Source of the DNA: Phycisphaerae bacterium | GTDB lineage: Bacteria; Planctomycetota; Phycisphaerae; UBA1845; Fen-1342 | DNA length: 43,588 nucleotides | Direction of reading: 5' to 3' | Assembly (NCBI GenBank): GCA_018056925.1 | Contig: JAGPEO010000001.1 | Coordinates: 1-43,588 of the forward strand | Part shown: piece by piece, positions 19,892 to 40,779 of the stretch | How the letters are laid out: each line of letters begins with the position of its first letter | Position numbering within the stretch: position 1 is the first letter of the stretch | Notes under the pieces: model-generated | What the model was told of the DNA's origin: nothing | Database searches by the model: none | The model's input: only the letters and a program-made list of their open reading frames with translations | Position numbers and translations under genes: made by a program

Positions 19892-19919
19892 TCGGCGCGA
19901 TCCTGCGGCCTCGGCCCGA

Positions 19920-21284
19920 TCAGCACCCGCCCGGAATCTTGTATTTGGCCATCTTGTCGCGCAGCGTCGTCCGCGGAATGCCCAGCCGTTGGGCGGCCCG
20001 CACCTGGTTGTTATCGCATTGCCGCAGCGCCAGCAGGATCATCCGCCGCTCAATGTCCGAGAGCGTGTCCGTCAGCCCCGGCCGCGCACCCTCAGGCGGT
20101 TCCATGCCCGCGGCCCACGCCACCGGCTCGGTCGCTTCGACTACCGGCGCGGTTATGTGTTCCGGCCGGATTTCATGACCGCCGCAGAACGCCAGGGCGC
20201 GCTCCATCACGTGCTCCAGCTCGCGCACATTGCCCGGCCAGTTGTGCCGTAAGAGCTGATCGAGCGCCGCCGGCGAGATCGTCACCACCCGGTCGCCCGT
20301 CAACGCGGCGTGCTTTTTCAGGAAGTGTCGCGCCAGCAGCGGAATGTCGTCCGGCCGCTCGCGCAGCGGCGGAATCGCCAGGCTGATCACGTTCAGCCGG
20401 TAGTACAAATCTTCCCGGAACCGGCCTTCCTTGACGAGCTTGAGCAGATCGCACTTCGTCGCGCACAGCAGGCGCACGTCGACGTGCACGGGCGTCTCGC
20501 CGCCGACGCGCTCAAACTCCTGCTGCTCGACGACGCGCAGCAGCTTGACCTGAATTTCCACCGGGATGTCGTCCACCTCATCCAGCAGAATCGTCCCCGT
20601 GTGCGCCAGCTCGAACCGCCCTGGCTTCTGCCGGATCGCCCCGGTAAAAGCCCCCTTTTCGTGCCCGAACAATTCGCTTTCGAGCACCGAAGCCTGCAAG
20701 GCCGCACAACTGAATCGTACGAACGGCTTATCAGCCCGGCGGCTGAGGTCGTGAATAGCCTCGGCGAAAAGCTCTTTGCCGGTGCCGCTCTCGCCGCACA
20801 ACAGAATCGTGCGATCAGTATCGGCCACGGCCCGCACCTGCGCGAACAGCCGCTTCATGCTCTGGCTGACGGCAACCAGTTGCGAGAGTTGCTCGACTTC
20901 CTCGTTCCGCGGGACTTCGCTGCGCACGGCCAGCAGGCGCTCCAGCTTGGGAACCAGTTCCTGGGTCGTGAAGGGCTTGGTGATGTAGTCGTACGCGCCG
21001 CCTTTGATGGCCTGCACGGCGGTGTCCACCGAGGCGTAGGCAGTCATCAGGATGACGCCGACGTCCGGCCGCGCCTGCTTGATATGCGCCAGCAGGTCTA
21101 GGCCGTTGGCGCCCGGCAGGCGAACATCCGATACGACGATGTCGATGGGCTTGGAATCGAAGATGCGCCGCGCCGCCAGCGCATCGGCGGCCTCGAAGAC
21201 TTCGAAGCCCAGTTCGCTGAGCTCGATCTGAAGCGTGATGCGCTTCAGCGGCTCGTCATCAACCACCAGGATGCGACCGCGCAT
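19920..21284 (-). CDS. Sigma-54-dependent response regulator (NtrC family enhancer-binding protein)
   Basis: REC domain (VVDDE...VSDVRLPG...TKPF), AAA+ Walker A GESGTGKE, GAFTGA loop, and a C-terminal Fis-type HTH (AAQRLGIPRTTLRDKM). Confidence 0.93.
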   Translation of the reverse strand: MRGRILVVDDEPLKRITLQIELSELGFEVFEAADALAARRIFDSKPIDIVVSDVRLPGANGLDLLAHIKQARPDVGVILMTAYASVDTAVQAIKGGAYDYITKPFTTQELVPKLERLLAVRSEVPRNEEVEQLSQLVAVSQSMKRLFAQVRAVADTDRTILLCGESGTGKELFAEAIHDLSRRADKPFVRFSCAALQASVLESELFGHEKGAFTGAIRQKPGRFELAHTGTILLDEVDDIPVEIQVKLLRVVEQQEFERVGGETPVHVDVRLLCATKCDLLKLVKEGRFREDLYYRLNVISLAIPPLRERPDDIPLLARHFLKKHAALTGDRVVTISPAALDQLLRHNWPGNVRELEHVMERALAFCGGHEIRPEHITAPVVEATEPVAWAAGMEPPEGARPGLTDTLSDIERRMILLALRQCDNNQVRAAQRLGIPRTTLRDKMAKYKIPGGC

Positions 21285-21474
21285 GCCCTGTCCCTCACAA
21301 TTCCAATCCGCGCTGCCGGATCAATTCGTCGCCGCGCCGCGACGGCCAGCAATTCGCCCCATATTGCCGGAATTGCCGCCATGAATCAACTGCCAAACAA
21401 AGTTACTGGACGGCCCAACCCACGACGGCACACCGGGCGGACCTTGACTTGGACCGCCTGCGGACAAAACTCCT

Positions 21475-22134
21475 TTGGCCTCCACTGCCACGGTTCAGGT
21501 TATGGTCGAAGCTGCCCAAGAACTAATCACCCGCTACGGCTACATTGGCCTGTTCGGATTGCTGGCGCTCGGCGTTGTCGGCGTACCCGCGCCGGACGAG
21601 ACGCTTGTCGCGGTCTCCGGACTTTTGATCAAAAAGGGCGAAATGAGCCTTGTGCCGACATTCCTGGCCGCGGTCGGCGGCAGCGCCGTAGGCGTCACTA
21701 TCAGCTTCGTGGTCGGCCGCGTCTTCGGCTTCCGCCTGATACACCGGTACGGCCATCTGCTGCACGTCACGGAAGAGCGCCTCGGGCGCTTCCAGCGCTG
21801 GTACGAACGTGTCGGACGGTGGACGCTGGTTTTTGGCTATTTCATACCGGGCATTCGACAGGTCACGGCTTTCGCCTCCGGAACGTCCGGGCTGTCGTGG
21901 GCCAGCTTCGCCGCATTCGCCTATTCCGGCGCGGTGCTGTGGGTCACGACGTTCCTTACGGCCGGCTATGTTCTCGAAGCGGAGTGGGAGAAGAGCTCGC
22001 CGAGAATGCACGCGGTAATCGTAGGCGTGGCCGGCGTAGGATTCGCGGTGGTCGCAACCTACGGCGTGCTGCGGCTCATGCGCTACAGACGCAACGTGAC
22101 GCCCGCCTCGAATTCGACGGCCCCCGATGAGTGA
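21475..22134 (+). CDS. DedA family membrane protein
   Basis: YGYIGLFGLLALGVVGVPAPDETLV and GYFIPGIRQVTAFASG are typical of DedA/SNARE-associated proteins. The start may be the ATG at 21502. Confidence 0.85.
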   Translation: MASTATVQVMVEAAQELITRYGYIGLFGLLALGVVGVPAPDETLVAVSGLLIKKGEMSLVPTFLAAVGGSAVGVTISFVVGRVFGFRLIHRYGHLLHVTEERLGRFQRWYERVGRWTLVFGYFIPGIRQVTAFASGTSGLSWASFAAFAYSGAVLWVTTFLTAGYVLEAEWEKSSPRMHAVIVGVAGVGFAVVATYGVLRLMRYRRNVTPASNSTAPDE

Positions 22135-29367: not shown

Positions 29368-30621
29368 ATGCAAAACGCACCCAAAGGTCTCAGGCTGCAC
29401 ATCGGCATCTTCGGCCGCCGCAACGTCGGCAAGTCATCCTTGTTGAACGCGCTCACGCGGCAGGAAGTGTCGATAGTCTCGGCCTGCGCCGGCACAACTA
29501 CCGACCCGGTCGAAAAGCCGATGGAATTGCTGCCCATCGGGCCGGTGCTGTTCATCGACACGGCCGGCGTGGACGACATCGGCGCCCTCGGGCAGCAGCG
29601 TGTTGAGCGGACGCGCCGGATTTTTGACCGCACCGACGTCGGCCTGATCGTTGCCGAGGCCGGCGAGTGGGGCGCTTTCGAAGAAGGCATTCTGAACGAA
29701 CTGGCCGGCCGGAATGTCCCGGCAATTGCGGTTTTCAACAAATGTGATTTGGCGTCGCCGTCGCCCGAGGTCCTAGCGCGGCTGAACGAACGGAAAATTC
29801 GGCACGTCCAGACGGTCGCCGGCCGTGGTGATGGACTGGCAGATTTGCGCGAAGCCCTGATCCGGTCCGCGCCAGACGACTTTGTCAACACACCGGCGAT
29901 CATCGGCGACCTTGTTCCGCCCGGCGAGCTGGCACTACTGGTCGTTCCCATCGACAAGGAAGCGCCGAAGGGGCGCCTGATCCTGCCGCAGGTGCAGACG
30001 ATTCGCGACCTGCTCGACCACGAAGCCTTCTGCATGGTTGTGAAGGAACGAGAGCTGCGCCAGGCGATTGACCGTCTGCGCCGCCCGCCGGCGCTGGTGG
30101 TGACAGATTCGCAGGCGTTCCTGAAGGTCTCGGCGGATACTCCGCTCGAGGTGCCGCTGACGTCCTTCTCTATCCTCTTCGCACGCTTCAAGGGCGACCT
30201 GACGGAGATGGTGCGCGGCGCGACCGCCATCGACCGGCTGCGACCCGGCGATCCCATCCTCATCGCCGAGGCCTGCTCGCATCACCCGATCGGCGAGGAC
30301 ATCGGCCGGGTGAAGATCCCGCGCTGGCTAACGCAGTACGTGGGCGGCGAGCTCGAATTCACTACGACTCAGGGGCACGACTTCCCGCCCGACCTGGCCG
30401 AGTACAAGCTCGTGATTCACTGCGGCGCCTGCGTCCAGAACCGGCGCGAGGTGCTTTCGCGAATCTTGAAATGCCGCCGCGCCGGCGTTCCGATCACGAA
30501 TTACGGCTTGGCGATCGCGTATTCGCTGGGCATTTTCGAGCGAGCCCTCGGGCCGTTTCCGGCCGCGCTGGAAGCCTACCGGGCGGCGCTCGCTGAGGGC
30601 GGGGGCGCGTCGCCCAGGTGA
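29368..30621 (+). CDS. hydF: [FeFe]-hydrogenase maturation GTPase HydF
   Basis: GTPase motifs GRRNVGKSS, DTAG, NKCD. C-terminal cluster motif EACSHHP ... HCGACV. Confidence 0.93.
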   Translation: MQNAPKGLRLHIGIFGRRNVGKSSLLNALTRQEVSIVSACAGTTTDPVEKPMELLPIGPVLFIDTAGVDDIGALGQQRVERTRRIFDRTDVGLIVAEAGEWGAFEEGILNELAGRNVPAIAVFNKCDLASPSPEVLARLNERKIRHVQTVAGRGDGLADLREALIRSAPDDFVNTPAIIGDLVPPGELALLVVPIDKEAPKGRLILPQVQTIRDLLDHEAFCMVVKERELRQAIDRLRRPPALVVTDSQAFLKVSADTPLEVPLTSFSILFARFKGDLTEMVRGATAIDRLRPGDPILIAEACSHHPIGEDIGRVKIPRWLTQYVGGELEFTTTQGHDFPPDLAEYKLVIHCGACVQNRREVLSRILKCRRAGVPITNYGLAIAYSLGIFERALGPFPAALEAYRAALAEGGGASPR

Positions 30622-30638
30622 GGACGGCCGGCGGTATT

Positions 30639-30663
30639 GCGGGGCGAACGCCCCGGCTCTGCT
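30639..30663 (+). repeat. REP-like palindromic element just after the hydF stop
   Basis: GCGGGGCGaaCGCCCCGGCTCTGCT, the same family as 12757, 12909 and 41778-41950. Confidence 0.8.
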
Positions 30664-30736
30664 ACTGCGCGAAATTCCGCGCGCAATTCCGCGCTGTCAT
30701 CCTGAAGGGGCTGACCGGCCCCATTTTCACCCATCC

Positions 30737-30752
30737 TGGCGTACCGCTTGCT
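30737..30752 (+). promoter_or_regulatory. Sigma-54-type -24/-12 promoter of the hydrogenase operon
   Basis: TGGCGTACCGCTTGCT, with GG-N10-GC and TTGC at the exact consensus spacing. It lies 104 nt upstream of the ATG at 30856. Two AATTCCGCGC copies lie 45-65 nt upstream. Confidence 0.6.
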
Positions 30753-30788
30753 TGTATCCGCTCGATAAGGGCGGATAATGTCCAGGTT

Positions 30789-30837
30789 CCTGCCGTGAGC
30801 AGACCCGCGAAGCCCCTGCCGTGAGCAGACCCGCGAA
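30789..30837 (+). repeat. Perfect 23-nt direct repeat in the operon leader
   Basis: CCTGCCGTGAGCAGACCCGCGAA at 30789-30811 and again at 30815-30837. Confidence 0.95.
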
Positions 30838-30855
30838 CCGAGACTGGAGTTCTTA

Positions 30856-31206
30856 ATGAAGCTGGCCACTTTGGCAGAGAAAATCGGAGCCCGGCTCCTG
30901 ACGCCCGGCAAGACGCTAAATGTCGCTGCCGACCAGGTTTACGCCGGTGATCGCATCAGCGATCTGCTCAATGCGGCCAGCGAGCACGTGTTGATGGTGA
31001 CCAACCTCGCCAGCGGACAGCTCACCATGATGGCCGGTCTCCTCGACGTGCCCTGCATCTGCCTGGTGAACAGCCAGATGCCCGACGAGACGATGCTCCG
31101 CAGCGCCCGCGAACACGGAACCGCCATCCTGGTTTCATCCTGCGGGCTCTTCGAAACCTGCGGCCGAATTTACCGCTGCCTTGCGGAGGAAGACCATTTG
31201 CCGTGA
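30856..31206 (+). CDS. DRTGG-domain protein (copy 1)
   Basis: 116 aa. Same length and pattern as copy 2 (VYAGDRISDLL ... LVNSQMPDETMLRSAREHGTAILVS...FETCGRIY). Confidence 0.7.
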   Translation: MKLATLAEKIGARLLTPGKTLNVAADQVYAGDRISDLLNAASEHVLMVTNLASGQLTMMAGLLDVPCICLVNSQMPDETMLRSAREHGTAILVSSCGLFETCGRIYRCLAEEDHLP

Positions 31207-32825
31207 CCTCCGTCTCGTACCAGATCGAGGGGGGCAATTACGAAACGGGTGGGGCAGCCTCGCGCCAGATTAAAGAACAACTTAAGAAAATCGGGGCGGA
31301 TCCGGCGGTTGTCAGGCGGGCCATGGTGGCCGCCTACGAAGCCGAGATGAATGTGGTAATTCACTCGCACGGGGGCGAACTGCGGGCGGAACTGGACGAG
31401 CACGAATTACGCGTCGACGTGATCGACACCGGGCCCGGCATTCCCGACGTGGAACAGGCCATGAAGCCCGGCTTCTCGACGGCTTCGGCCAAGGCCCGGG
31501 AACTGGGCTTCGGCGCGGGCATGGGCCTGCCGAATATCAAGAAAAACAGCGATCATTTCGCGATCGAATCGGCGGCCGGACGTGGCACTCGCGTCAGTTT
31601 TACGATTCACCTACGTCCGCAGGCGCTGTACGGCGCGGGGCAGTTCTCGATCCAGGTTGAAGCCGAAAAATGCCGCCGATCGCTGCATTGCCTGCGGGCT
31701 TGCCCGACGCAGGCACTGCGGGTGCTGCGGGGCAAGCCTGAGATCCTGGATTACTTGTGCATTGACTGCACCGAGTGCATTGCCGCGTGCCCAAGCGGTG
31801 CGTGGGGTCTGCGGTCCGCGGGCGAAGAGCTTAAGCCATCCCCCGGTTCCATCCTCATACTGCCTCCGGTGAGCCTGGTGCAGTTCGGGGCGGGTATTAC
31901 TGCGGGGCAAGTCCTAACTGAGCTGGCGTACCTGGGCTTCTCGGATATCCGCGTAACGGCGGCCTGGGAAAGCGCGCTACGTAAGGCCGTCATGCAATAC
32001 GCGGCCGGCGAGACGCGCGTCCGCCCTGTGATCTCACCCGTGTGCCCGGCGGTTGTGAACCTGATTCAGTTGCGCTTCCCGTCGCTGCTGCCGCACGTGG
32101 CCCCGTTTCTTTCAGCCCAAGAGGCCGCCTATGAGAGCGTGGTCGGCGAGGATCGCAGGCTGCTGTCGCTGGTACCCTGCCCGTGCCAGTTGACGATTGT
32201 GCGGTCCCGCGACAGACCGGTGGAAAAGCGGTCCCACGTTCTGGCGGTGCTGCCGGCGACGTTCGCGGCCGTGTTGCACCCGCGCCTAAAGCGGGGAACA
32301 GGCCGCTCCGCCGACACGGGGTCAACGCCGGCCGCTCCGGACCCGCTGGGCGTCTTGCGCGTGACTGGAATCCATAAAGTGCGGCAGGTTTTGGAACGGC
32401 TGGAGGACGGGCTGCTGACCGACATCACGGTAATCGAGCCGTATGCCTGTTTTGCGGGCTGTTTTGGATCGCCGCTGTTTACGGAAGTCGCCAGCGTGGC
32501 CCAATATCGCTGGGCCCTGGCGCCGGCCAAACCCGATCCGCGGGCGCGGGCGGTGCGACGCGTGGTTCCGCTGGAGCCACGGCACGGGCTGCGGCTGGAT
32601 GCGGACATGACGCGCGCCATTCAGAAGTTGGCCAGGATTGATAAACTGCGCCGCAGCCTCCCCGGCAGCAATTGCGGCAATTGTGGAGCGCCGACCTGCG
32701 CGGCACTGGCCGAGGACATTGTTCTGGGGCGTGCCCAGCTCGATGCTTGCGTGCGGCAGAGGATGGATAACGAACCGGCCGCCAAGCAGTCGCGGCCCGG
32801 GCCTCCAGCGGAGGAAAGTAAATGA
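31203..32825 (+). CDS. Fusion of an RsbW/SpoIIAB-like Ser/Thr kinase, a 2x[4Fe-4S] ferredoxin, an [FeFe]-hydrogenase H-domain-like module and an RnfB-type FeS domain
   Basis: GHKL motifs (YEAEMNVVIH, DTGPGI, GAGMGLPNIKK). CRRSLHCLRACP and CIDCTECIAACP. L1-, L2- and L3-like ISPVCPAV, VPCPCQ and EPYACFAGCFGSP. C-terminal CGNCGAPTCAALAEDI. GTGA overlap with the upstream gene. Confidence 0.8.
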   Translation: MTSVSYQIEGGNYETGGAASRQIKEQLKKIGADPAVVRRAMVAAYEAEMNVVIHSHGGELRAELDEHELRVDVIDTGPGIPDVEQAMKPGFSTASAKARELGFGAGMGLPNIKKNSDHFAIESAAGRGTRVSFTIHLRPQALYGAGQFSIQVEAEKCRRSLHCLRACPTQALRVLRGKPEILDYLCIDCTECIAACPSGAWGLRSAGEELKPSPGSILILPPVSLVQFGAGITAGQVLTELAYLGFSDIRVTAAWESALRKAVMQYAAGETRVRPVISPVCPAVVNLIQLRFPSLLPHVAPFLSAQEAAYESVVGEDRRLLSLVPCPCQLTIVRSRDRPVEKRSHVLAVLPATFAAVLHPRLKRGTGRSADTGSTPAAPDPLGVLRVTGIHKVRQVLERLEDGLLTDITVIEPYACFAGCFGSPLFTEVASVAQYRWALAPAKPDPRARAVRRVVPLEPRHGLRLDADMTRAIQKLARIDKLRRSLPGSNCGNCGAPTCAALAEDIVLGRAQLDACVRQRMDNEPAAKQSRPGPPAEESK

Positions 32826-33184
32826 CTCTCGCGGAAATCGCGGAAAGACTGGGGCTGCAAAACCTGACGCCTGAGATCAGCCCGGCCGCGGCCGACGTGA
32901 CCGGCGGATACGTCTCGGACCTGCTAAGCGATGTACTGGCGAACGCACCGAAGGGCGGCGTTCTGGTAACGGTTCAGGTGCACCTGAACGTGATCGCGGT
33001 CGCGGTCCACGCCGAACTGGCCGCCATTATCTTCGCTTCTGATCGCGTTCCGGATGACACTGTTCAGGCAAAGGCGAAGGAAGAAGGCATCGCCCTGTAC
33101 TGCTCGAAGGCTTCGGCATTTGAGGTGGTCGGGCGACTGTGGGAAATGGGCGTGCGAGGGCCGCGGCAGAGTGATACGAAGTGA
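32822..33184 (+). CDS. DRTGG-domain protein (copy 2)
   Basis: VTGGYVSDLLSDVLANA...VTVQVHLNVIAVAV...AKEEGIALY.SKASAFEVVGRLWEMG. ATGA overlap with the upstream gene. Confidence 0.8.
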   Translation: MTLAEIAERLGLQNLTPEISPAAADVTGGYVSDLLSDVLANAPKGGVLVTVQVHLNVIAVAVHAELAAIIFASDRVPDDTVQAKAKEEGIALYCSKASAFEVVGRLWEMGVRGPRQSDTK

Positions 33185-33300
33185 TACAGTGATAAAGTGA
33201 TAAGGTGATAAGGTGATAAGGATTCAGCACTCGACGCAAGTCTGCCCGCGCCGCGCCCTTATCACTCTATCACGTTATCACCTTGTCACCCTATCACGTG
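33171..33300. repeat. Octamer array with inverted counterpart (long imperfect hairpin)
   Basis: Six direct GTGATA-NN units (33171-33220). A 37-nt GC-rich spacer. Five inverted NN(N)-TATCAC units (33258-33297). AT-rich in a GC-rich operon. Confidence 0.95.
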
Positions 33301-33322
33301 CTTCGCGGCGCGAGGTGCTCCC

Positions 33323-34114
33323 TTGAAGCTCTGGGCCGCCGACCTGCATATCCATACCGCCCTGTCGCCCTGTGCGGCGGATGAGATGACGCCGCCGGCC
33401 ATCGTGCAGGCGGCCCTGGAGCGCGAGCTGTCGATGATCGCGATTTGCGATCACAACGCGGCCGGCAATGCCGAGGCCGCTGCTGCCGCCAGCCTATGTG
33501 CCGGCCGCACCGTCGCCGGTCTCAAACTGGCGGTCCTGGCGGGCATGGAAATCATGACGGCCGAGGAAGTGCACATTCTGGGCATTTTTCCGAGCCCGGC
33601 CGCGGCGGCAGCGGCCGCGAAAGAGGTGCGTGCTACTCTGCCCGAGGCCACCGTCGCGTATCACCAGAAGTTCGGGCAGCAGCTTGTAATTGATTCGGGC
33701 GGGTCGATCGTCGATTCCGAGCCGAAAATGCTGGCCATGGCTTCGGGCTTCGACCTGTCGGCGGCGGTGCGGCTGATACACCGGCATGAGGGGCTGGCGA
33801 TCGCGGCGCACGTCAACCGCCCGTCGTTCAGCGTGTTCAGCCAACTCGGCATGTTCCCGGGGGACGCCGGTTTTGACGCCATCGAGGTTTTTACGCCCTG
33901 TGGCGACGGACCCGACGCTTCGCGAGCCGAAAGCCATACGGTCGTGGCGGAGTTCTCAAAATACGGCTTACCTGTCATCGCCTCGTCGGACGCCCATTAC
34001 CTGGATGACGTGGGGTCGGTACGTTCGCGCCTGCGGTTGCGGGAGCCGAGTTTCGACGAACTGGTGATGGCCCTGCGCGGTTCATGCGGGCGGCGCGTGG
34101 TACACGATGCGTGA
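33323..34114 (+). CDS. PHP-domain metal-dependent phosphoesterase
   Basis: DLHIHTALSPC, ICDHNA, AAHVNRP, ASSDAHY. TTG start with GAGGTG upstream. Confidence 0.85.
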   Translation: MKLWAADLHIHTALSPCAADEMTPPAIVQAALERELSMIAICDHNAAGNAEAAAAASLCAGRTVAGLKLAVLAGMEIMTAEEVHILGIFPSPAAAAAAAKEVRATLPEATVAYHQKFGQQLVIDSGGSIVDSEPKMLAMASGFDLSAAVRLIHRHEGLAIAAHVNRPSFSVFSQLGMFPGDAGFDAIEVFTPCGDGPDASRAESHTVVAEFSKYGLPVIASSDAHYLDDVGSVRSRLRLREPSFDELVMALRGSCGRRVVHDA

Positions 34115-34652
34115 GTTAGCGCTGCACATTCTCGACCTGGTCGAAAACTCGATCCGGGCCAACTCGTCAGTCATAGAGGTCACGGTCGCCGCGGACCAGA
34201 CGGCCGACCGCCTGCGCATCCAGATAGATGACAACGGCCCGGGCCTGAAGGTGACGCCTCAGCAGGCCCTGGACCCCTTCTATACGACCAAGTCCGGGAA
34301 ACGCACTGGTCTGGGCCTGAGCCTGTTCAAGGCGGCCGCCGAACGGGCGGGCGGACGGCTTACTTTAGAACGCTCGGACTTGGGCGGCCTGCGGGTTTTG
34401 GCGGAGATGGGCCTGCGACACGTAGACCGCAGCCCGCTGGGGGATCTGGCGACATCGCTGGGATCGGTCGTGTGCGCGAATCCGCACATCGATTTTCACT
34501 TTCGCATAAGTCACGACGGGCACGAGACTTGCATCCGAACCTGGGAGCTGGCACATGAACTTGGCCTGCCCCCCGACGATTCAATCGCTCTGGCACGCCG
34601 CGTGATAGAGACGATCCGGACGGAACTTGAAACGGCGAGGGGACTGGCTTAA
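34107..34652 (+). CDS. Stand-alone GHKL (histidine-kinase-like) ATPase without HisKA or receiver domains
   Basis: N-box LDLVENSIRAN, G1 DDNGPGL, G2 GLGLSL. 8-nt overlap with the PHP gene. Confidence 0.8.
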   Translation: MRELALHILDLVENSIRANSSVIEVTVAADQTADRLRIQIDDNGPGLKVTPQQALDPFYTTKSGKRTGLGLSLFKAAAERAGGRLTLERSDLGGLRVLAEMGLRHVDRSPLGDLATSLGSVVCANPHIDFHFRISHDGHETCIRTWELAHELGLPPDDSIALARRVIETIRTELETARGLA

Positions 34653-34754
34653 CAGCGGAGGGTGGGCACTCCCACCGCGCTTGAGCCCTAACCGCATTGG
34701 TGGCCGGCCGGGCCGTTGCCCCGCTAGGCCGGTCGAGCGTTACAGGAGATGTAA

Positions 34755-35306
34755 ATGAGTGAGGACCGCAAAGTAGGATGCACGTGCTCGTGCGGCGAGG
34801 AAGTCTCCGAGCAGGAGTTGCTTGCCCGCCTGGACGGCGTGCTCGCCGAATATCGGGACAAGCCCGGTGCTTTGATCCCGGTGTTGCAGATGGCGCAGGG
34901 CATCTTCGGCTATCTGCCCGAGGTGGCCTTGAAGCGGATTGCGTTAGGGCTGAACAAGTCCTACAGCGAGGTAGCCGGCGTCGTCAGTTTTTATTCCTTC
35001 TTCTCGACTGTGCCGCGCGGCAAGCACCTGGTGCGGGTCTGCCTGGGTACGGCCTGCTACGTGCGCGGCGGCAAACGCGTGCTCGACACGCTCAAGCAGA
35101 AGCTGGGCATCGACGTCGGCGAAACGACGCCCGACCGCCAGTTCACGCTCGAAGTGGCACGCTGCTTCGGGGCGTGCGGGCTGGCGCCGGCCATCATGAT
35201 CGACGATGACGTCCATCACCGTGTCAAGCCCAACAAGATCGAGCTGGTCCTCGGTCCGTATCGAAACGGCGAGGCGGCCAAGGCGGAAAGGAAGGTCCCG
35301 GCATGA
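34755..35306 (+). CDS. hydC: NuoE/HydC-like [2Fe-2S] subunit of NAD(P)-linked hydrogenase
   Basis: VCLGTACYVRGG ... ARCFGACGLAPA is the thioredoxin-like 2Fe-2S motif. AGGAG Shine-Dalgarno upstream. Confidence 0.9.
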   Translation: MSEDRKVGCTCSCGEEVSEQELLARLDGVLAEYRDKPGALIPVLQMAQGIFGYLPEVALKRIALGLNKSYSEVAGVVSFYSFFSTVPRGKHLVRVCLGTACYVRGGKRVLDTLKQKLGIDVGETTPDRQFTLEVARCFGACGLAPAIMIDDDVHHRVKPNKIELVLGPYRNGEAAKAERKVPA

Positions 35307-35668
35307 CTCGCATCAACAGCCCCCAAGACCTGAAAGCCCTTCAAGAGAAAGCCAAGAAAGACATCGACCTGCGCAGCGGCCAGAAGGACATGCGCATCAC
35401 CGTCCACATGGGCACCTGCGGCATCGCCGCCGGGGCGCGCGACGTGCTGGCCGCTCTGTTGACCGAGCTGGGTCCGGCCACCGACAAAGTCACAATCACG
35501 CAGACCGGCTGCGCCGGGCTGTGCGACCAGGAACCCATGCTCACGCTCACCGATAAGGCCGGCGGTTCCTTCCGCTACGGGCGTTTGGACAAGAACAAGG
35601 TTGGCCAGATCGTGCGCGAGCACGTGTTGCGCGGCCAGCCGGTGCTGGAATACATGATTAAGTGCTAG
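35303..35668 (+). CDS. Small thioredoxin-like [2Fe-2S] ferredoxin (HndB/HydD-like)
   Basis: VHMGTCGIAAGA ... QTGCAGLCDQEP. ATGA overlap with hydC. Confidence 0.8.
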   Translation: MTRINSPQDLKALQEKAKKDIDLRSGQKDMRITVHMGTCGIAAGARDVLAALLTELGPATDKVTITQTGCAGLCDQEPMLTLTDKAGGSFRYGRLDKNKVGQIVREHVLRGQPVLEYMIKC

Positions 35669-35728
35669 TTGTCAGTGGTCAGTTTTCAGTTGTCAGTTTC
35701 AGAATGCGACGGACAACTGATGGCTGAC
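35669..35728. repeat. Heptamer array with partial inverted counterpart
   Basis: TTGTCAG TGGTCAG TTTTCAG TTGTCAG TTTCAG (35669-35702), then GACAACTGA TGGCTGAC (35712-35728). A 9-bp perfect stem pairs 35686-35694 with 35712-35720. Confidence 0.9.
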
Positions 35729-35756
35729 GCCCGGCAACTTCGGAGATCGAGCGAAC

Positions 35757-38700
35757 ATGAATAACGTCAGAAGTCACGTTCTCGTCTGCACCGGCGGCGG
35801 CTGCATTGCCTCAGGGGCCCTCGAAGTTTCCGCGGCCCTGCGCGAGCAGCTCGAGAAGCACGGCTTGCACCACGAGATCAAGGTTATCGAGTCCGGCTGC
35901 CTGGGTCCCTGTGCGGTCGGCCCGGTCGCCTCCGTCTATCCCGATGGCACGTTCTACCAGGGATTGCGGGCCGACGACGCGGAGGAAATCGTCAAAGAGC
36001 ATCTGCTCAAGGGCCGCGTGGTCGAACGCCTGGTCCACAAGACGCCGGCCGGCCAGCCCGTTTCCGGCCTGCATGAGATCGGCTTCTTCCAGAAGCAGGT
36101 CAAAATCGTGCTGCGCAACTGCGGCGTGATCGACCCGCTGCGGATCGAGGAATACATCGCCCGCGACGGCTATCAGGCCCTCGGCAAGGTCCTGACCGAG
36201 ATGACGCCCGAGCAGGTCATCGCCGAGATGAAGAAGTCCGGCCTGCGCGGCCGTGGCGGGGCCGGCTTCCCGACCGGCTTGAAGTGGGAATTCACCCGCA
36301 AGAGCAAGGGCGAGGTCAAGTACATCCTGTGCAACGGTGACGAAGGCGACCCCGGCGCATTCATGGACCGCAGCGTCCTGGAAGGCGATCCGCACAGCGT
36401 AATCGAGGGCATGGCCATCGCCGCCTACGCCATCGGCGCGCACCAGGGCTTTGCCTATATCCGTGCCGAATACCCGCTGGCGGTCGAGCGTTTCCAGCAC
36501 GCCCTCAAGCAGGCCCGCGACTGCGGCTTGCTGGGGAAGAACATCATGAACAGCGGCTTCGATTTCGATATCGAAGTCCGCATGGGTTCCGGCGCGTTCG
36601 TCTGCGGCGAGGAAACCGCCCTGATGACGAGCATCGAAGGCAACCGCGGCGAGCCGCGTCCACGGCCCCCGTTCCCGGCCGTCAAAGGCCTGTGGGACAA
36701 GCCGAGCTGCCTGAACAACGTCGAGACCTTCGCCAGCGTGCCGGTCATCATGCACAAGGGCGCCGACTGGTACGGCTCCTACGGCACCGAGAAGAGCAAG
36801 GGCACCAAAGTGTTCGCCCTGGCGGGTGCGGTCAACAACACCGGCCTGGTCGAAGTGCCCATCGGCATGCCGCTGGGCGAGATCATCCACGACATCGGCG
36901 GCGGCATTCCGGGCGGCAAGAAGTTCAAGGCGGCCCAGATGGGCGGCCCGTCCGGCGGCTGCATCCCGAAAGAGCACCTGAACGTTCCGGTCGATTACGA
37001 GTCGCTGACCGAACTGGGCGCGATCATGGGCTCCGGCGGCATGATCGTCATGGACGAGGACACGTGCATGGTGGACGTGGCCCGCTTCTTCCTGGACTTC
37101 TGCCAGGATGAGAGCTGCGGCAAGTGTCCGCCGTGCCGCGTCGGCACCAAGCGCATGCTCGAAATCGTGAGCCGCATTTGCGAAGGCCTGGGCGAGGAAG
37201 GCGACGTCGAGAAGCTGATCGAGCTGGGCCAGACCATCAAGGACACGGCCTTGTGCGGGCTGGGTCAGACCGCCCCCAACCCGGTCCTGTCCACCATTCG
37301 ATATTTCCGCGACGAGTACGACGCCCACATTCGCGAGAAGCGCTGCCCGGCCGGCGTGTGCCCGTCACTGGTGCGAGCCCCCTGCCAGAGCGCCTGCCCG
37401 GCCGGCGTGGACGTGCCCGGGTTCGTCTCGCTGGTGGGCGAAAAGCGGTACGCCGAGGCCTTGGCGCTGCATCGCAATCGCAACCCGTTCGCGTCCGTTT
37501 GCGCCCGCGTGTGCTTCCACGCCTGCGAGGACAAGTGCCGCCGCGGCAGCCTCGACGAAGCGGTCGCCATTCGCGGCGTCAAACGCTTCATGGCTGAACA
37601 GGAAGTCACGGTTCAGCTCCCCTCCGTGCAGGACAACGAGGAAAACGCCCGCCGCAAGATCGCCATCATTGGCGCCGGCCCGGCCGGCCTGTCGTGTGCG
37701 TACTTCCTGGCGCGGCTCGGCTACCGCCCGAAGGTGTTCGAGGCCGAGTCACAGCCGGGTGGCATGCTGGTGCAGGCGATTCCCGCCTACCGGCTGCCGC
37801 GGCAGGAATTGGCCCGCGAAATCCGCATGATTGAGCGGCTCGGCGTGGACATCGAGCTGAACATGCGTCTCGGCCGAGACTTCACGCTGGAGAGCCTCCG
37901 CAAGGACGGCTATGAGGCCGTGTTCCTCGCCGTCGGCGCTCCGCAAGGCTCGAAGCTGGGTATCCCCGGCGAAGAGGCCGACGGCGTGGTCGACGCCCTG
38001 CGGTTCCTCCGCGAGTACAACGTCCGCGGCACCGCCCAGGTGGGCAAGAACGTGGTCGTTATCGGCGGCGGCAATTCGGCGATCGACGCGGCTCGGACCG
38101 CAATCCGCCTGGGAGCCGAGTCGGTTACCGTGCTCTACCGCCGAACGCGTGCCGAAATGCCCGCCTTCGCCGAAGAAATTGACGAAGCCGAGCACGAAGG
38201 CGTACGGATCGCGACCCTCGTCGCCCCGCTTGAAGTCGTGCAGAAGAACGGCAAGGTCGCCGGTCTCAAGTGCCGCCACATGGTCCTGGGCGAGTTCGAC
38301 CGCAGCGGGCGTCGCCGGCCGGTCGACGGCAAAGACGAAGACTTCATCGTCCCGGCCGACATGATCATCGCCGGCATCGGACAAAAACTCGACACGGCCG
38401 AAATCTTCAACGGCCAGGCCCTGAAGGTGAATCGTTCCGGCTTCATCGCCGCGGACCGAATCACCGGGCAGACCTCAGTGCCGTGGATTTACGCCGGCGG
38501 CGATGCGGCCGTCGGACCCTGGTCGGTCGTGGGCGCCATCGCGGATGGCGAAAAAGCGGCTGTGGCGATCGACAAGATGCTCACCGGGGCCGAGCACGCC
38601 TTCTGGCGTGAGAACCAGCAGCCGGACACCGAGTTTGACCCGGACGCCGATCCGGTGCAGTACCCGCGGGCCAAGCAGGCCATGATTCCGGTGAGCAAGC

Positions 38701-38834
38701 GCAAGAACAACTTCCAGGAGGTCGAGCTGTCCTGGTCGGAGGCCGTGGCGCGGCGCGAAGCCAAGCGTTGCCTGCGGTGCGACTACCGGGCGCCGGCGGG
38801 TTCCGAAGGTAAAGTTCCGCCCTGCAAGCAGTAA
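35757..38834 (+). CDS. hydB: NuoF/HydB-like flavoprotein subunit fused to a GltD/NfnB-like FAD/NAD(P)H oxidoreductase
   Basis: N-terminal 2Fe-2S (CTGGGC...CLGPC), GLRGRGGAGFPTGLKW, CGKCPPCRVG. From about 37340, the GltD-type cluster region (APCQSACPAGVDVP, CARVCFHACEDKCRR) and two Rossmann motifs (IIGAGPAGLS, VIGGGNSAIDAA). Confidence 0.88.
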   Translation: MNNVRSHVLVCTGGGCIASGALEVSAALREQLEKHGLHHEIKVIESGCLGPCAVGPVASVYPDGTFYQGLRADDAEEIVKEHLLKGRVVERLVHKTPAGQPVSGLHEIGFFQKQVKIVLRNCGVIDPLRIEEYIARDGYQALGKVLTEMTPEQVIAEMKKSGLRGRGGAGFPTGLKWEFTRKSKGEVKYILCNGDEGDPGAFMDRSVLEGDPHSVIEGMAIAAYAIGAHQGFAYIRAEYPLAVERFQHALKQARDCGLLGKNIMNSGFDFDIEVRMGSGAFVCGEETALMTSIEGNRGEPRPRPPFPAVKGLWDKPSCLNNVETFASVPVIMHKGADWYGSYGTEKSKGTKVFALAGAVNNTGLVEVPIGMPLGEIIHDIGGGIPGGKKFKAAQMGGPSGGCIPKEHLNVPVDYESLTELGAIMGSGGMIVMDEDTCMVDVARFFLDFCQDESCGKCPPCRVGTKRMLEIVSRICEGLGEEGDVEKLIELGQTIKDTALCGLGQTAPNPVLSTIRYFRDEYDAHIREKRCPAGVCPSLVRAPCQSACPAGVDVPGFVSLVGEKRYAEALALHRNRNPFASVCARVCFHACEDKCRRGSLDEAVAIRGVKRFMAEQEVTVQLPSVQDNEENARRKIAIIGAGPAGLSCAYFLARLGYRPKVFEAESQPGGMLVQAIPAYRLPRQELAREIRMIERLGVDIELNMRLGRDFTLESLRKDGYEAVFLAVGAPQGSKLGIPGEEADGVVDALRFLREYNVRGTAQVGKNVVVIGGGNSAIDAARTAIRLGAESVTVLYRRTRAEMPAFAEEIDEAEHEGVRIATLVAPLEVVQKNGKVAGLKCRHMVLGEFDRSGRRRPVDGKDEDFIVPADMIIAGIGQKLDTAEIFNGQALKVNRSGFIAADRITGQTSVPWIYAGGDAAVGPWSVVGAIADGEKAAVAIDKMLTGAEHAFWRENQQPDTEFDPDADPVQYPRAKQAMIPVSKRKNNFQEVELSWSEAVARREAKRCLRCDYRAPAGSEGKVPPCKQ

Positions 38835-38852
38835 GGGCAAGAGGACTGATAC

Positions 38853-40664
38853 ATGCCAAAGCTTACGATTGACAACATCCCCGTCGAGGTTCCCGAGGGA
38901 ACCAGTGTCCTGGAAGCGGCCCAAAAGGCCGGCATCCGGATTCCGACGCTGTGCTATCTTAAGGACGTGCAGGCCATCGGCGCCTGCCGCGTGTGCACGG
39001 TGGAGATCAAGGGCGCCCGTACGCTCGTGGCCTCTTGCTCCCAGCCCGCGACTGAGGGCATGGAAGTAAAAACCAACACGCGCCGCGTGCGCCAGGCGCG
39101 CCGCACCGTCGTCGAGCTTCTCCTCTCCGAGCACGACGGCGACTGCCAGACCTGCAACCGCAGTGAAGACTGCGAGCTGCAGGCCGTGGCGCGTGAGCTT
39201 GGGGTTAAGGACATCACCTACCCCGGCGCCAAGGCCGCTCGCTTCCGCGACACCAGCACGCCCGCTCTGACCCGCGACACCGCCAAGTGCATCGCCTGCC
39301 GGCGTTGCGTGACGGTCTGCAACAACGTCCAGGGCGTCGCAGCCCTGTGGGCTCAGAACCGCGGGTTCAAGACCGTCATCGGTCCGGCCTTCTGCCAGAA
39401 CCTGGACGAAGTCGTGTGCGTGCAGTGCGGCCAGTGCGGGGCCGTGTGCCCGGTCGGCGCAATCACCGAGAAGGACCACATCGCGGCTGTCTGGGAAGCC
39501 TTGGATGACCCCAACAAGCACGTTGTGGTGCAGACCGCCCCTGCCATTCGCGCCGCCTTGGGCGAATGCTTCGGCTACCCGCCCGGCACGCGCGTTACCG
39601 GCAAGATGACCGCCGCCCTGCGGCGTCTCGGATTCGACGGTGTGTTCGATACGAACTTCGCCGCCGACCTGACCATCATGGAAGAGGGCACCGAGTTGCT
39701 CATGCGGCTCAAGCATGCCCTGGTCGATTCCAAGAAGGGCGGCGGCAACGGCCACAAGGACGATCATCACACGCCGGGTCCGCTGCCGATGTTCACGAGC
39801 TGCTCGCCGGGCTGGATCAAGTTCCTCGAGCACTACTACCCGGACATGACGGCGAATCTGTCCACGTGCAAGTCGCCGCAGCAGATGTTCGGCGCGGTCG
39901 CCAAGACTTACTACGCCCAGAAGATCGGCAAGAAGCCGGAAGATATCTTTGTGGCGTCGGTCATGCCTTGCACCGCCAAGAAGTACGAGTGCCAGCGGCC
40001 TGAGATGAACGACAGCGGCGTGCAGGATGTCGATGCGGTCCTGACCACTCGCGAGTTGGCTCGCATGATCAAGCAGGCCGGCATCCGCTTCGAGCAACTG
40101 CCGGATGAGAAGATGGACGCCCCGCTGGGCATCTCGACCGGCGCTGCCGACATCTTCGCCAATACCGGCGGCGTGATGGAAGCGGCCCTGAGAACCGCTT
40201 GGGAAATCGTGACCGGCAAGCCGTTGCCGTTCGAGAATCTGCACGTGCAGCCGATCGCCGGCCTCGAAGGCGTCAAGGAAGCGTCCGCAAAGATCACCGG
40301 CGCCAAGCCGGAGTGGTCGTTCCTCGAAGGCGCCGAGCTGAAGGTCGCGGTCGCCCACGGCCTGGGCAACGCCCGCAAGGTCATCGAGGCGGTCCGTAGC
40401 GGCCAGAAGCAGTATCACTTCATCGAAGTGATGACCTGCCCCGGCGGTTGCATCGGTGGCGGCGGGCAGCCGCGGCTGACGACGAACGACCACCGCCTGG
40501 CCCGCATCCGGGCGATCTACGAGGAAGACGAACATCGCGAGCTGCGCAAGAGCCACGAAAACCCGGCCGTTTTGCAGCTTTACAAGGAATTCCTCGGTCA
40601 GCCGCTAGGCGAGAAGTCGCACAAGCTGCTGCACACGAAGTACGTGGCGCGTACTAAGGTTTAA
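38853..40664 (+). CDS. hydA: [FeFe]-hydrogenase catalytic subunit, long multi-cluster form with non-canonical L1 motif
   Basis: N-terminal 2Fe-2S and F-cluster domains (CIACRRCVTVC, CVQCGQCGAVCP). L1 FTSCSPGW, L2 VMPCTAKKYE, L3 EVMTCPGGCIGGGGQP. C-terminal small-subunit-like tail. Confidence 0.92.
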   Translation: MPKLTIDNIPVEVPEGTSVLEAAQKAGIRIPTLCYLKDVQAIGACRVCTVEIKGARTLVASCSQPATEGMEVKTNTRRVRQARRTVVELLLSEHDGDCQTCNRSEDCELQAVARELGVKDITYPGAKAARFRDTSTPALTRDTAKCIACRRCVTVCNNVQGVAALWAQNRGFKTVIGPAFCQNLDEVVCVQCGQCGAVCPVGAITEKDHIAAVWEALDDPNKHVVVQTAPAIRAALGECFGYPPGTRVTGKMTAALRRLGFDGVFDTNFAADLTIMEEGTELLMRLKHALVDSKKGGGNGHKDDHHTPGPLPMFTSCSPGWIKFLEHYYPDMTANLSTCKSPQQMFGAVAKTYYAQKIGKKPEDIFVASVMPCTAKKYECQRPEMNDSGVQDVDAVLTTRELARMIKQAGIRFEQLPDEKMDAPLGISTGAADIFANTGGVMEAALRTAWEIVTGKPLPFENLHVQPIAGLEGVKEASAKITGAKPEWSFLEGAELKVAVAHGLGNARKVIEAVRSGQKQYHFIEVMTCPGGCIGGGGQPRLTTNDHRLARIRAIYEEDEHRELRKSHENPAVLQLYKEFLGQPLGEKSHKLLHTKYVARTKV

Positions 40665-40731
40665 GAAACGATTCCCATTAGATCCGAGCCCAAAGCGACA
40701 GCGAGGGCGAAGGATCAACGGTGAACAAACA

Positions 40732-40779
40732 AGCGAGGCGCCTGCCAACCTCCAGATTGGCAGGCGCCTCGCTCTTTTG
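40732..40779 (+). terminator. Rho-independent terminator of the hydrogenase operon
   Basis: Perfect 17-bp stem AGCGAGGCGCCTGCCAA / TTGGCAGGCGCCTCGCT, an 8-nt loop, then CTTTTG. Confidence 0.9.

Follow-up and report, generated by a model that had tools for sequence, protein, structure and literature searches.

The window analysed here, 43,588 nt from a Planctomycetota MAG, carries five forward-strand open reading frames between the gene of the H-cluster maturation GTPase HydF (29368..30621, +; TIGR03918, 553 bits for a cut-off of 325) and the hydrogenase structural genes (34755..40664, +). These are D1 (30856..31206, 116 aa, DRTGG fold), a kinase-sensor fusion named Kin-HS (31203-32825, 540 aa, GTG start), D2 (32822..33184, 120 aa, a paralogue of D1), PHP (33323..34114, 263 aa, TTG start, with Pfam domains PHP and PHP_C) and K2 (34107..34652, 181 aa, with a histidine-kinase-type CA domain). 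The five frames of the first-pass annotation are confirmed by the ORF list and by gene calls made independently for three public assemblies, and its three start/stop overlaps can be read directly in the sequence (GTGA at 31203-31206, ATGA at 32822-32825, 8 nt at 34107-34114). The genes are thus as tightly packed as it described, except between D2 and PHP, where a gap of 138 nt is left because the TTG at 33323 is the most upstream start possible. A repeat search finds there inverted arrays of the octamer GTGATAAG (33181..33297, no strand assigned; arms 33181-33221 and 33257-33297), with 8 matches among octamer pairs for 0 expected. The arrays build a large hairpin (RNA fold -60.5 kcal/mol, z -5.6), an element absent from relatives in which D2 and PHP overlap.

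The downstream genes, assigned with Pfam and NCBIfam (NF040763, 900 bits for a cut-off of 765), are all on the same strand and encode a HydC/NuoE-like protein (34755-35306), a small 2Fe-2S protein (35303-35668), HydB/NuoF carrying a fused GltD/NfnB-like domain (35757-38834) and a HydA of group A6 (38853-40664). A GC-rich hairpin with a 20-bp stem 3' of hydA (40731..40774, no strand assigned) is likely the end of the operon. The cassette is of an already known, uncharacterised type lying upstream of bifurcating HydABC. Pfam searches uphold all the domain calls made earlier, those of DRTGG by way of a family profile and structure, and the cassette indeed contains no STAS domain, sigma factor or HTH. 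The proposed sigma-54-type promoter fares less well. A -24/-12-like site, TGGCGTACCGCTTGCT (30737..30752, +), does lie 104 nt upstream of D1 with the correct GG-N10-GC spacing and is the sole match in the window. Yet chance alone would give 0.91 matches to the loose pattern per window, and such a site precedes D1 in only 1 of 71 other loci, i.e. it is not conserved; hence, we regard it as a consensus match only. Gene calls place an NtrC-type activator at 19920-21284 on the reverse strand.

The first 145 residues of the fusion (31203..31637, +) form a GHKL kinase domain of the RsbW/SpoIIAB type, Kin. It matches HATPase_c_2 (38.0 bits, GA 27.4) and HATPase_c (42.6 bits) in Pfam, and the NCBIfam family TIGR01925 spIIAB with an E-value of 1.6e-13, a match that falls short of that family's cut-off. 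Residues 44-143 align with 44-144 of the anti-sigma F factor in PDB 1L0O/1TIL, the catalytic residues match SpoIIAB position for position, and the invariant columns are E46, N50, D75xG77xG79 (DxGxG) and G102-G108 (GxGxGxGL). The ATP-binding and catalytic residues are all present.

The remainder of the protein (31638..32825, +) is HS, a degenerate group D (M2e) HydS-like domain with no PAS domain. It consists of two ferredoxin-type motifs, an H-domain and a C-terminal Cx2Cx4Cx16C (C491/494/499/516), and the first motif reads CxxSxxCxxxCP, i.e. it has Ser for the second Cys. Pfam finds Fer4 dicluster families, FeS (PF04060, 47.2 bits) and Fe_hyd_lg_C (38.0 bits, GA 22.1). Of the 245 positions of this last profile only 9 to 105 are matched, whereas in a Thermoanaerobacteraceae locus (L038) the match runs from 4 to 245. 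Identity is 29-33% to split group D proteins and 22-23% to HydA or to the HisKA-fused type. The Fe-S sensor announced by the first-pass annotation does have Fe-S domains but is more specifically a homologue of the putative sensory [FeFe] hydrogenases of group D/M2e. Its reading as a redox or H2 sensor is less secure in the H2 part. The H-domain retains the four H-cluster cysteines (Cys281/326/416/420), but the cyanide-binding Lys358 of CpI corresponds to Gln329 (Q in 104 and K in none of 121 fused homologues), and the 'SGGE' loop that carries E252 in TamHydS has no conserved counterpart in the fused homologues, which have a variable linker of 44-83 residues instead. Because of these two changes, the fused form may sense redox state, not H2.

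Kin and HS are one polypeptide in Planctomycetota, Actinomycetota and Spirochaetota and adjacent separate genes in Bacillota and Bacteroidota. Since they are fused in 23 loci and split in 56, with identical gene order throughout, they constitute a Rosetta-stone link between kinase and HydS, pointing to an RsbW/SpoIIAB-type kinase as the long-sought partner of the HydS-type sensor. Among the new results is thus the nature of the 'Fe-S sensor', in which one protein joins a HydS homologue to a kinase of this type. The sensor family is known from biochemical and spectroscopic work in vitro on TamHydS (PMC8163306, PMC10407848, PMC13104023), so that the earlier remark on the lack of biochemical characterisation applies to the kinases, the DRTGG proteins and PHP but not to the sensor. 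As of 2026 the literature still calls the signalling partner of TamHydS-type sensors unknown.

D1 and D2 score under the Pfam DRTGG threshold (18.1 and 16.6 bits, GA 25.2). Nevertheless, the assignment made from motifs was right: the D1 family profile matches the DRTGG structures 3L2B/3L31 (1e-5) and 2IOJ (8e-5), and the AlphaFold (AF2) model of D1 (pLDDT 87.6) superposes on 2IOJ with a TM of 0.82 and an rmsd of 2.3 A. With an hhalign probability of 99.8% (E 2e-29) between them, D1 and D2 are paralogues of the DRTGG fold, and each has an invariant Ser, located in both at a helix N-cap. In D1 this is Ser35, within D-x-[MI]-S-D-[VL]-L according to conservation and model; the invariant positions of the D2 family are D33, L35, S36, V38, T50 and N56. 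PHP passes the Pfam thresholds (PHP 28.2 bits, GA 26.4; PHP_C 39.3 bits) and its metal ligands (HxH, DH, E, H, H, DxH) are kept across 60 homologues. Among solved structures it comes closest to 2YB1, listed as 'amidohydrolase', to the 5'-3' exoribonuclease 7UG9 and to EndoQ; among named NCBIfam families the nearest include those of RNase RNM and of the 3',5'-nucleoside bisphosphate phosphatase.

K2 (HATPase_c, 57.9 bits) consists of a CA domain (aa 1-105) and an 80-aa alpha/beta C-terminal domain with a conserved H-V-D-R-x-P-L-G-D; Pfam finds in it no HisKA, receiver or HTH. Its profile matches the CA domains of CpxA, ZraS and EnvZ. Searched with Foldseek, its AF2 model (pLDDT 88.7) resembles the CA domain of CpxA (35% identity) and, weakly over the whole length, TopoVI-B and MutL.

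To compare loci we took the best 80, counting genes over the assessable ones. They come from Planctomycetota, Actinomycetota, Spirochaetota, Bacillota, Bacteroidota, Chlorobiaceae, Hydrogenedentes, Acidobacteriota and others, and across phyla the cassette genes are conserved together with hydABC; the order D1, Kin and HS (fused or split), D2, PHP, K2, hydC/B/A is common to at least eight phyla. D1 is present in 74 of 79 assessable loci, directly upstream of the kinase, PHP in 62 of 68 and D2 in 56 of 74; no further family of genes is conserved alongside the cassette. D2 is dispensable, since about 9 of the 21 loci of the fused lineage lack it. K2, found in 39 of 40 hydB-bearing loci, is missing from stand-alone cassettes and sits among hydC, fdx and hydB in three different gene orders; within the fused lineage K2 and HydB are found in 15/16 and 14/15 assessable loci. 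Hence, the five-gene unit described earlier is conserved as a set, but unequally: the invariant core is D1-Kin-HS, usually followed by D2-PHP, and K2 belongs to the hydrogenase module, as it travels with hydB and not with the sensor. Some operons comprise D1-Kin-HS-D2-PHP with unrelated genes on both sides, which favours a trans-acting signalling module over an enzyme subunit. The suggested Clostridial relatives exist (e.g. L038 and L055), but the suggested Thermotogae ones do not appear among the best 80 loci; in the literature, T. maritima is instead given the PAS-containing M2f type (PMC3561251).

The output of the cassette had been deemed not obvious, yet Actinomycetota allow one to be proposed. 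In all 8 of their loci Rex is fused to D1 (as an intact ORF in 6; in L007 and L021 the fusion is broken over different frames), as it is in 5 of 10 long representatives of the D1 family, and in L050 a free Rex gene adjoins D1. Fusion to this repressor suggests a transcriptional output in Actinomycetota.

We tentatively propose, with a probability of about 40%, that the locus is the sensor end of a redox- or H2-responsive regulatory system that controls the adjacent electron-bifurcating hydrogenase by a phospho- or partner-switch, a plausible mechanism. The redox state of the Fe-S domain of HS would gate the kinase; in the fused form this domain is probably [4Fe-4S]-only and would read electron pressure without splitting H2. 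Kin would bind and phosphorylate D1 and/or D2 at the invariant Ser, the DRTGG fold taking the role of STAS, and PHP would reset the switch in the role of PP2C. The state of the DRTGG proteins would be relayed to an effector, which in Actinomycetota would be the Rex fused to D1, acting on transcription; in the Planctomycetota genome the candidate outputs are K2 acting on HydABC or a sigma-54/NtrC-type route. Several observations count against this proposal. We know of no DRTGG domain that is a phospho-acceptor, and the conserved Ser could be structural or ligand-binding instead. The relatives of PHP act on nucleotides or oligonucleotides, and the protein phosphatases CpsB/YwqE are not its nearest. 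Neither a sigma factor nor a Rex gene or operator is found in the window, D2 is dispensable, K2 as a whole resembles GHL ATPases only weakly, and the C-terminal cluster of TamHydS is unresponsive to H2 (PMC13104023).

One might suppose that Kin-HS works purely by sequestration, as an anti-factor for an effector that could be Rex, another regulator or HydABC itself, with D1 and D2 as competitive antagonists, ATP as a conformational cofactor and no phosphate reaching the DRTGG proteins. The SpoIIAB/RsbW family acts partly via ATP/ADP-dependent binding, the Rex-D1 fusion fits a repressor tethered to the sensor, and D1-Kin-HS is a sufficient minimal trio in several loci lacking PHP (L009, L029, L030, L041, L065). 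We nevertheless find this unlikely, as the catalytic Glu46 and the full ATP-lid motifs are invariant and the phosphoesterase co-conserved in most loci is intact, which implies the removal of a covalent mark. It is less probable still that the signal is a nucleotide, with PHP hydrolysing pAp, nanoRNA or dinucleoside polyphosphate, the DRTGG proteins responding to nucleotides as in CBS-DRTGG pyrophosphatases, and the GHKL modules being ATPases and not protein kinases. The nucleotide-directed relatives of PHP and the match of D1, in profile and fold, to the nucleotide-regulated CBS pyrophosphatase 3L2B/3L31 argue for it. But in that enzyme nucleotides bind the CBS pair and not the DRTGG domain, no nucleotide cyclase or synthetase is in the cassette or co-conserved with it, and Kin belongs specifically to the protein kinases of SpoIIAB type.

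An improbable third option is that HS, both GHKL ATPases and PHP build, repair or stabilise HydABC or the H-cluster without any signalling. This would suit the adjacent hydF, the interleaving of K2 with hydrogenase genes, its modelled weak likeness to GHL clamp ATPases and the degenerate H-domain, which recalls scaffold-like Nar1 proteins. However, hydF is adjacent in only about 5 of 80 loci, stand-alone cassettes lie far from hydrogenase genes, D1 is fused to a transcription factor, and, to our knowledge, HydABC(D) enzymes assemble in the absence of the cassette and, once purified, have none of its proteins in them. That HS is a working hydrogenase or electron-entry module feeding or draining the bifurcating enzyme, the kinase being secondary, is hardly credible: TamHydS, a split orthologue, turns over H2 at low rates (PMC8163306), and the ferredoxin-type clusters and H-cluster cysteines are kept, but the Lys for the distal cyanide and a conserved E252 counterpart are missing, and E252 variants of TamHydS show undetectable H2 oxidation (reported <0.01 residual; PMC10407848).

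The cassette has several known counterparts. In the [NiFe] HoxBC-HoxJ-HoxA system of Cupriavidus/Ralstonia, as summarised in PMC5707799, a low-activity hydrogenase homologue and a GHKL kinase also control hydrogenase genes, with an NtrC-type sigma-54 activator as output; the metal centre and proteins are unrelated to ours, and HoxJ, which has a PAS domain, is a genuine histidine kinase of the HisKA type. A nearer analogue, a HydS-HisKA-HATPase fusion, lies downstream of hydA in other loci and is absent from the window. The RsbW-RsbV-RsbU/P and SpoIIAB-SpoIIAA-SpoIIE switches share a GHKL anti-sigma-type kinase with aligned catalytic residues, adjacent small single-domain partners, translational coupling and a phosphoesterase in the operon. 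They differ in that our partners have the DRTGG fold and not STAS, the phosphoesterase is PHP and not PP2C, there is no sigma factor and the input is an Fe-S domain. Closer in sensor type are the group C (M2f) systems of T. maritima HydS, Ruminococcus albus HydS and Thermoanaerobacterium hfsABCD, where genetics gave hfsB a regulatory phenotype (PMC5707799, PMC3561251). There too a hydrogenase-like sensor lies beside a bifurcating hydrogenase and is linked to kinase/phosphatase genes and Rex, but the sensors have a C-terminal PAS, whereas in our locus the kinase is fused N-terminally, PHP is the phosphatase candidate and DRTGG proteins are present. In R. albus (work of Zheng et al., cited in PMC5707799) the sensor is reportedly partnered by a Ser/Thr kinase, by a phosphatase of the PP2C type and by a Rex that has a gene of its own. 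Closest of all is the group D (M2e) system of Thermoanaerobacter mathranii, where TamHydS has a 'histidine kinase-like ATPase' alongside, upstream of an A1-type bifurcating hydrogenase (PMC8163306, PMC10407848, PMC13104023, PMC3561251, PMC3608648). HS departs from TamHydS in the substitutions and linker described above and in the kinase at its N-terminus. Yet both have two N-terminal ferredoxin-type motifs, an H-domain and the C-terminal Cx2Cx4Cx16C, lack PAS and lie upstream of hydCBA, and in the Thermoanaerobacteraceae locus L038 the neighbours are the same D1, Kin, D2, PHP and K2.

Ahead of hydC, hydB and hydA lies, with high confidence, a signalling cassette that belongs to the group D HydS type and accompanies a bifurcating hydrogenase. 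Earlier comparative work had already described bifurcating hydrogenases preceded by group D hydrogenases and kinases (PMC3561251, PMC3608648), and the cassette is thus of a known kind. The first-pass annotation had read five open reading frames at 30856-34652. They encode D1 and D2, small DRTGG-fold proteins of 116 and 120 aa; Kin-HS, a 540-aa fusion of a kinase with a HydS-like sensor; PHP, a phosphoesterase; and K2, a minimal HATPase_c protein. The ORF listing recovers all five, and independent gene calls for this organism in three public assemblies yield identical genes. Direct reading likewise finds the three proposed overlaps (GTGA at 31203-31206, ATGA at 32822-32825 and 8 nt at 34107-34114), and the GTG and TTG starts are supported by homologues aligning from residue 1. 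The tight packing claimed for the cassette holds at these junctions but not between D2 and PHP, where 138 nt separate the D2 stop (33184) from the earliest possible PHP start (33323). Inverted arrays at 33181-33297, each of about 5-6 tandem 8-nt units GTGATAAG, with arms 35 nt apart, occupy this gap and pair into a ~50-bp hairpin (-60.5 kcal/mol, z -5.6). The element occurs once in the window, and relatives have overlapping D2 and PHP genes in its place. It may serve in mRNA processing or stability, act as an 8-bp-periodic protein-binding array or be a small insertion; an Rfam scan of 30500-35000 returned nothing besides one sub-threshold miRNA-hairpin match to it, taken as chance. A GC-rich hairpin with a perfect 20-bp stem (40731-40774), 67 nt past the hydA stop, is the likely terminus of a ten-gene operon spanning 30856-40664. 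Elsewhere the window carries housekeeping genes (a ribosomal protein operon, SecY, MreB/C, trigger factor, ClpP). It derives from a Planctomycetota MAG, and one homologous locus, L001 on contig DAIMSQ010000002.1, is 99% identical to it.

The neighbourhood check supports the predicted co-conservation of the cassette with hydrogenase genes. Scanning one genome per species gave at least 595 relatives, and the best 80 loci share the order D1, Kin and HS (fused or not), D2, PHP, (HydC) K2, Fdx, HydB, HydA. Scored by domain-level HMMs, D1 is present in 74/79 assessable loci, PHP in 62/68 and D2 in 56/74; within the fused lineage K2 was found in 15 of the 16 assessable loci, HydB in 14 of 15 and HydA in 12 of 13. 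No further co-conserved gene family turned up beside the cassette in the best 80 loci. Planctomycetota, Actinomycetota, Spirochaetota, Verrucomicrobiota, Hydrogenedentes and Brocadiia have Kin and HS joined in a single polypeptide; in Bacillota, Bacteroidota, Chlorobiaceae and others they are separate, neighbouring genes. Yet the five genes are not a single unit as had been thought. D1-Kin-HS-D2-PHP stands alone amid unrelated genes in some Clostridia, and some loci have D1-Kin-HS only. K2 goes with hydB (39/40 loci, in three gene orders) and is missing from the stand-alone operons. Hence D1, Kin-HS, D2 and PHP make up a sensor module, and K2 is a gene of the hydrogenase module.

Two observations concern the neighbours of the fused form. 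HydB (35757-38834) is a 1025-aa fusion of a NuoF-like part with a GltD/NfnB-like one (Fer4_20 + Pyr_redox_2), which accompanies fused Kin-HS in Planctomycetota, Actinomycetota and Spirochaetota and is missing in loci of Bacillota and Bacteroidota. It hints that the hydrogenase of the fused loci differs in its pyridine-nucleotide specificity. In a Myxococcales locus (L020, 2112-5924) Kin-HS follows a 1270-aa formate-dehydrogenase-like protein (Fer2_4, NADH-G, Molybdopterin), instead of standing ahead of a hydrogenase, on a contig that stops before the genes downstream.

The kinase/Fe-S fusion called for protein 2 is borne out by its Pfam matches: HATPase_c_2/HATPase_c, a ferredoxin dicluster, a partial Fe_hyd_lg_C and FeS (PF04060). 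The HS part (residues 146-540) has two N-terminal ferredoxin-type motifs, the first a variant, an H-domain and a C-terminal Cx2Cx4Cx16C, with no Pfam match to a PAS domain anywhere in the protein. This is the same overall layout as that of the M2e or group D putative sensory [FeFe] hydrogenases, defined, Cx2Cx4Cx16C motif included, in PMC8163306. The C-terminus CGNCGAPTCAALAEDIVLGRAQLDAC supplies C491, C494, C499 and C516 (FeS PF04060, 47.2 bits). The H-cluster cysteines of the L1, L2 and L3 motifs (C281, C326, C416, C420) are invariant in 15 homologues; among 121 fused homologues the first three are found in all and C420 in 109, a shortfall that probably reflects an alignment shift. The second ferredoxin motif, CIDCTECIAACP, is canonical, and the first, CRRSLHCLRACP, has Ser at the second Cys position in a domain that the Pfam Fer4 dicluster families match. 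The window shares this Ser variant, CxxSxxCxxxCP (31671-31706, residues 157-168), with its closest relatives; Cys is retained in fused homologues further away. The variant may hold a [3Fe-4S] or Ser-ligated cluster.

The active-site pocket was compared across 23 fused, 56 split and 5 HisKA-fused proteins against HydA, and then across the 121 fused homologues. The H-cluster lysine binds the distal cyanide and is required for insertion of the di-iron site. At its position (329 here, Lys358 in CpI numbering) the 121 proteins have Q in 104 cases, E in 7, H in 5 and K in none. The split, TamHydS-like proteins keep PCxAK, with K in 51/56, plus an SGGE loop; the columns of that loop are fully gapped in 16/23 fused forms, and the fused proteins carry an unconserved linker of 44-83 residues where it would be. 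TamHydS, the one characterised group D putative sensory hydrogenase, has both the lysine and the E252 SGGE loop, whereas the fused pocket has neither. The loop belongs to the proton pathway of group D. In TamHydS no residue other than E252 comes within reach of the H-cluster amine, and H2 oxidation is lost in E252 variants (PMC10407848); the numbering is shifted by one in the Thermoanaerobacteraceae orthologue L038. With lysine and loop both missing, the HS domain of the window may hold only Fe-S cubanes, and its signal may be redox state, not H2. TamHydS has been studied by spectroscopy (PMC8163306, PMC13104023), and in April 2026 its authors described its interaction partners as still to be identified and called that identification critical (PMC13104023). 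The Kin-HS fusion directly nominates the kinase as a candidate for that partner.

The two small proteins had been called DRTGG-type, and the call stands at the level of profile homology and D1 fold despite Pfam scores (PF07085: D1 18.1, D2 16.6 bits) below the gathering threshold of 25.2. The D1 family profile matches the DRTGG structures 3L2B/3L31 and 2IOJ and the HPr-kinase N-domain, and the AlphaFold model of D1 (pLDDT 87.6) superposes on 2IOJ with a TM of 0.82. D1 and D2 are paralogues in a divergent DRTGG subfamily whose name-giving motif is gone: TGGDRxD has become TGLxNxQ in D1 and TxQxHxN in D2. What the subfamily has gained is an invariant Ser, which caps helix 2 at its N-terminus within D-x-[ML]-S-D-V-[LM] in both proteins. 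The D1 family comprises ~1,200 clusters at 50% identity, and relatives of D1 are annotated as hypothetical proteins in public databases. A D1-kinase fusion (P0326) considered as a Rosetta stone contains an out-of-frame stretch and is probably an assembly frameshift; D1-EAL, DHH-D1 and ABC/PEPCK chimeras are single cases on which we do not rely. Our literature search found no work tying DRTGG or PHP genes to hydrogenases or partner switching.

The phosphoesterase assignment of protein 4 is sound, with both Pfam domains above threshold (PHP, PF02811, 28.2 against 26.4; PHP_C, PF13263, 39.3 against 21.3) and the motifs DLHIHT, DHN, GME, EEVH, AHxxR and SSDAH conserved in 60 homologues, all metal ligands kept. 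Long PHP reading frames in two loci (L018, L032), candidates for D2-PHP fusions, proved to be upstream over-extensions of the ORF. What PHP acts on might be a nucleotide signal rather than a phosphoprotein. Among solved structures 2YB1 and the exoribonuclease 7UG9 stand closest to it, and among named NCBIfam families those of the 3',5'-nucleoside bisphosphate phosphatase and RNase RNM do, which keeps the nucleotide-based route alive beside a phospho-switch.

A phospho-switch in the manner of partner switching had been the first-pass interpretation. A signalling cassette does lie beside the hydrogenase, but membership of the canonical partner-switching class fails, as STAS, PP2C and sigma factor are all absent: no STAS domain was found among the Foldseek matches of D1 or by Pfam, and the genes examined in the cassette and the window encode neither a PP2C nor a sigma factor. 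The kinase itself (residues 1-145 of protein 2) is of the RsbW/SpoIIAB type, with HATPase_c_2 at 38.0 bits against a threshold of 27.4, residues 44-143 aligning with 44-144 of the structures of SpoIIAB, the anti-sigma F factor, and E46, N50 and the DxGxG and GxGxGxGL boxes invariant and matched there position for position. Its score of 50.7 bits against the TIGR01925 cut-off of 135 shows that it is not an equivalog. The cassette could still work in a partner-switching manner. A two-component histidine kinase, with a HisKA/DHp acceptor and a cognate receiver, does not fit either: neither Kin nor K2 has a Pfam match to HisKA.

K2 fits its description as a minimal GHKL protein, HATPase_c being its one Pfam match. 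A CA domain of the histidine-kinase type makes up residues 1-105; structural alignment puts it at 35% identity with CpxA, and its N, G1, F and G2 boxes are conserved. The C-terminal 80-residue alpha/beta domain of K2 carries H-V-D-R-x-P-L-G-D, whose His reaches at least 90% conservation only among close relatives and about 50-70% overall. Over its whole length K2 resembles TopoVI-B and MutL only weakly (TM about 0.5).

Other genomes point to an output. In 8/8 Actinomycetota loci D1 is the C-terminal domain of Rex (Put_DNA-bind_N + CoA_binding), as six intact and two frameshift-split ORFs. Rex-D1 thereby opens the cassette in place of a free D1 gene (e.g. L006 8884-9984; also P0325) and accounts for 5/10 long representatives of the D1 family; a free Rex gene abuts D1 in one Bacteroidales locus. 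The window itself has no Rex gene and, within 3 mismatches, no Rex operator. An NtrC-type sigma-54 activator adjoins the cassette in 8 loci, and the window has one at 19920-21284 on the minus strand. A HydS-HisKA-HATPase_c fusion of ~650 aa, with a full-length H-domain and the Lys kept, follows hydA in five loci (L007, L010 at 19639-21594, L013 at 19060-21084, L018 and L051), so these genomes have two hydrogenase-derived sensors; a sigma-54 response regulator of the NtrC type by the cassette (e.g. L011 7937-9337) often accompanies it. The sigma-54-like site of the window (30737-30752) is a single consensus match where 0.91 is expected by chance, and upstream of D1 in 71 loci a match occurs in the window's own species only. 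Two repeats flank it in the operon leader: a 12-nt tandem repeat GCGCGAAATTCC (x2.3, 30667-30694) upstream, and downstream, close ahead of D1, two identical direct copies of the 22-nt CTGCCGTGAGCAGACCCGCGAA (30790-30811 and 30816-30837). Both are possible regulator-binding sites.

Taken together, we infer a mechanism in which the HS sensor would gate Kin, Kin would phosphorylate or bind D1 and D2, PHP would reset the switch and Rex or another effector would respond; we give this whole about two chances in five. A partner-switching device of a new class is a bolder and rather unlikely proposal: DRTGG would stand for STAS and PHP for PP2C, a [4Fe-4S]-only ex-hydrogenase domain would gate an RsbW-type kinase, and output would go to the NADH-sensing Rex and/or to HydABC via K2. 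Were it true, the amount of bifurcating hydrogenase would reflect cellular electron pressure and NADH/NAD+ combined. Electron-bifurcating [FeFe] hydrogenases govern H2 balance in anaerobic fermenters, syntrophs and gut and rumen communities. The main value of the cassette is that it makes the question of HydS signalling directly testable, with a candidate partner in the Kin-HS fusion and its hundreds of relatives, candidate substrates and reset enzyme in D1, D2 and PHP, and one candidate output in Rex-D1. The degenerate pocket of the fused forms and that of TamHydS offer a natural contrast on whether signalling needs H2 chemistry. Like RsbW/SpoIIAB modules, the cassette has a GHKL Ser kinase/anti-sigma domain; where those modules pair it with a STAS antagonist and a PP2C, it has DRTGG-fold proteins and a PHP phosphoesterase.
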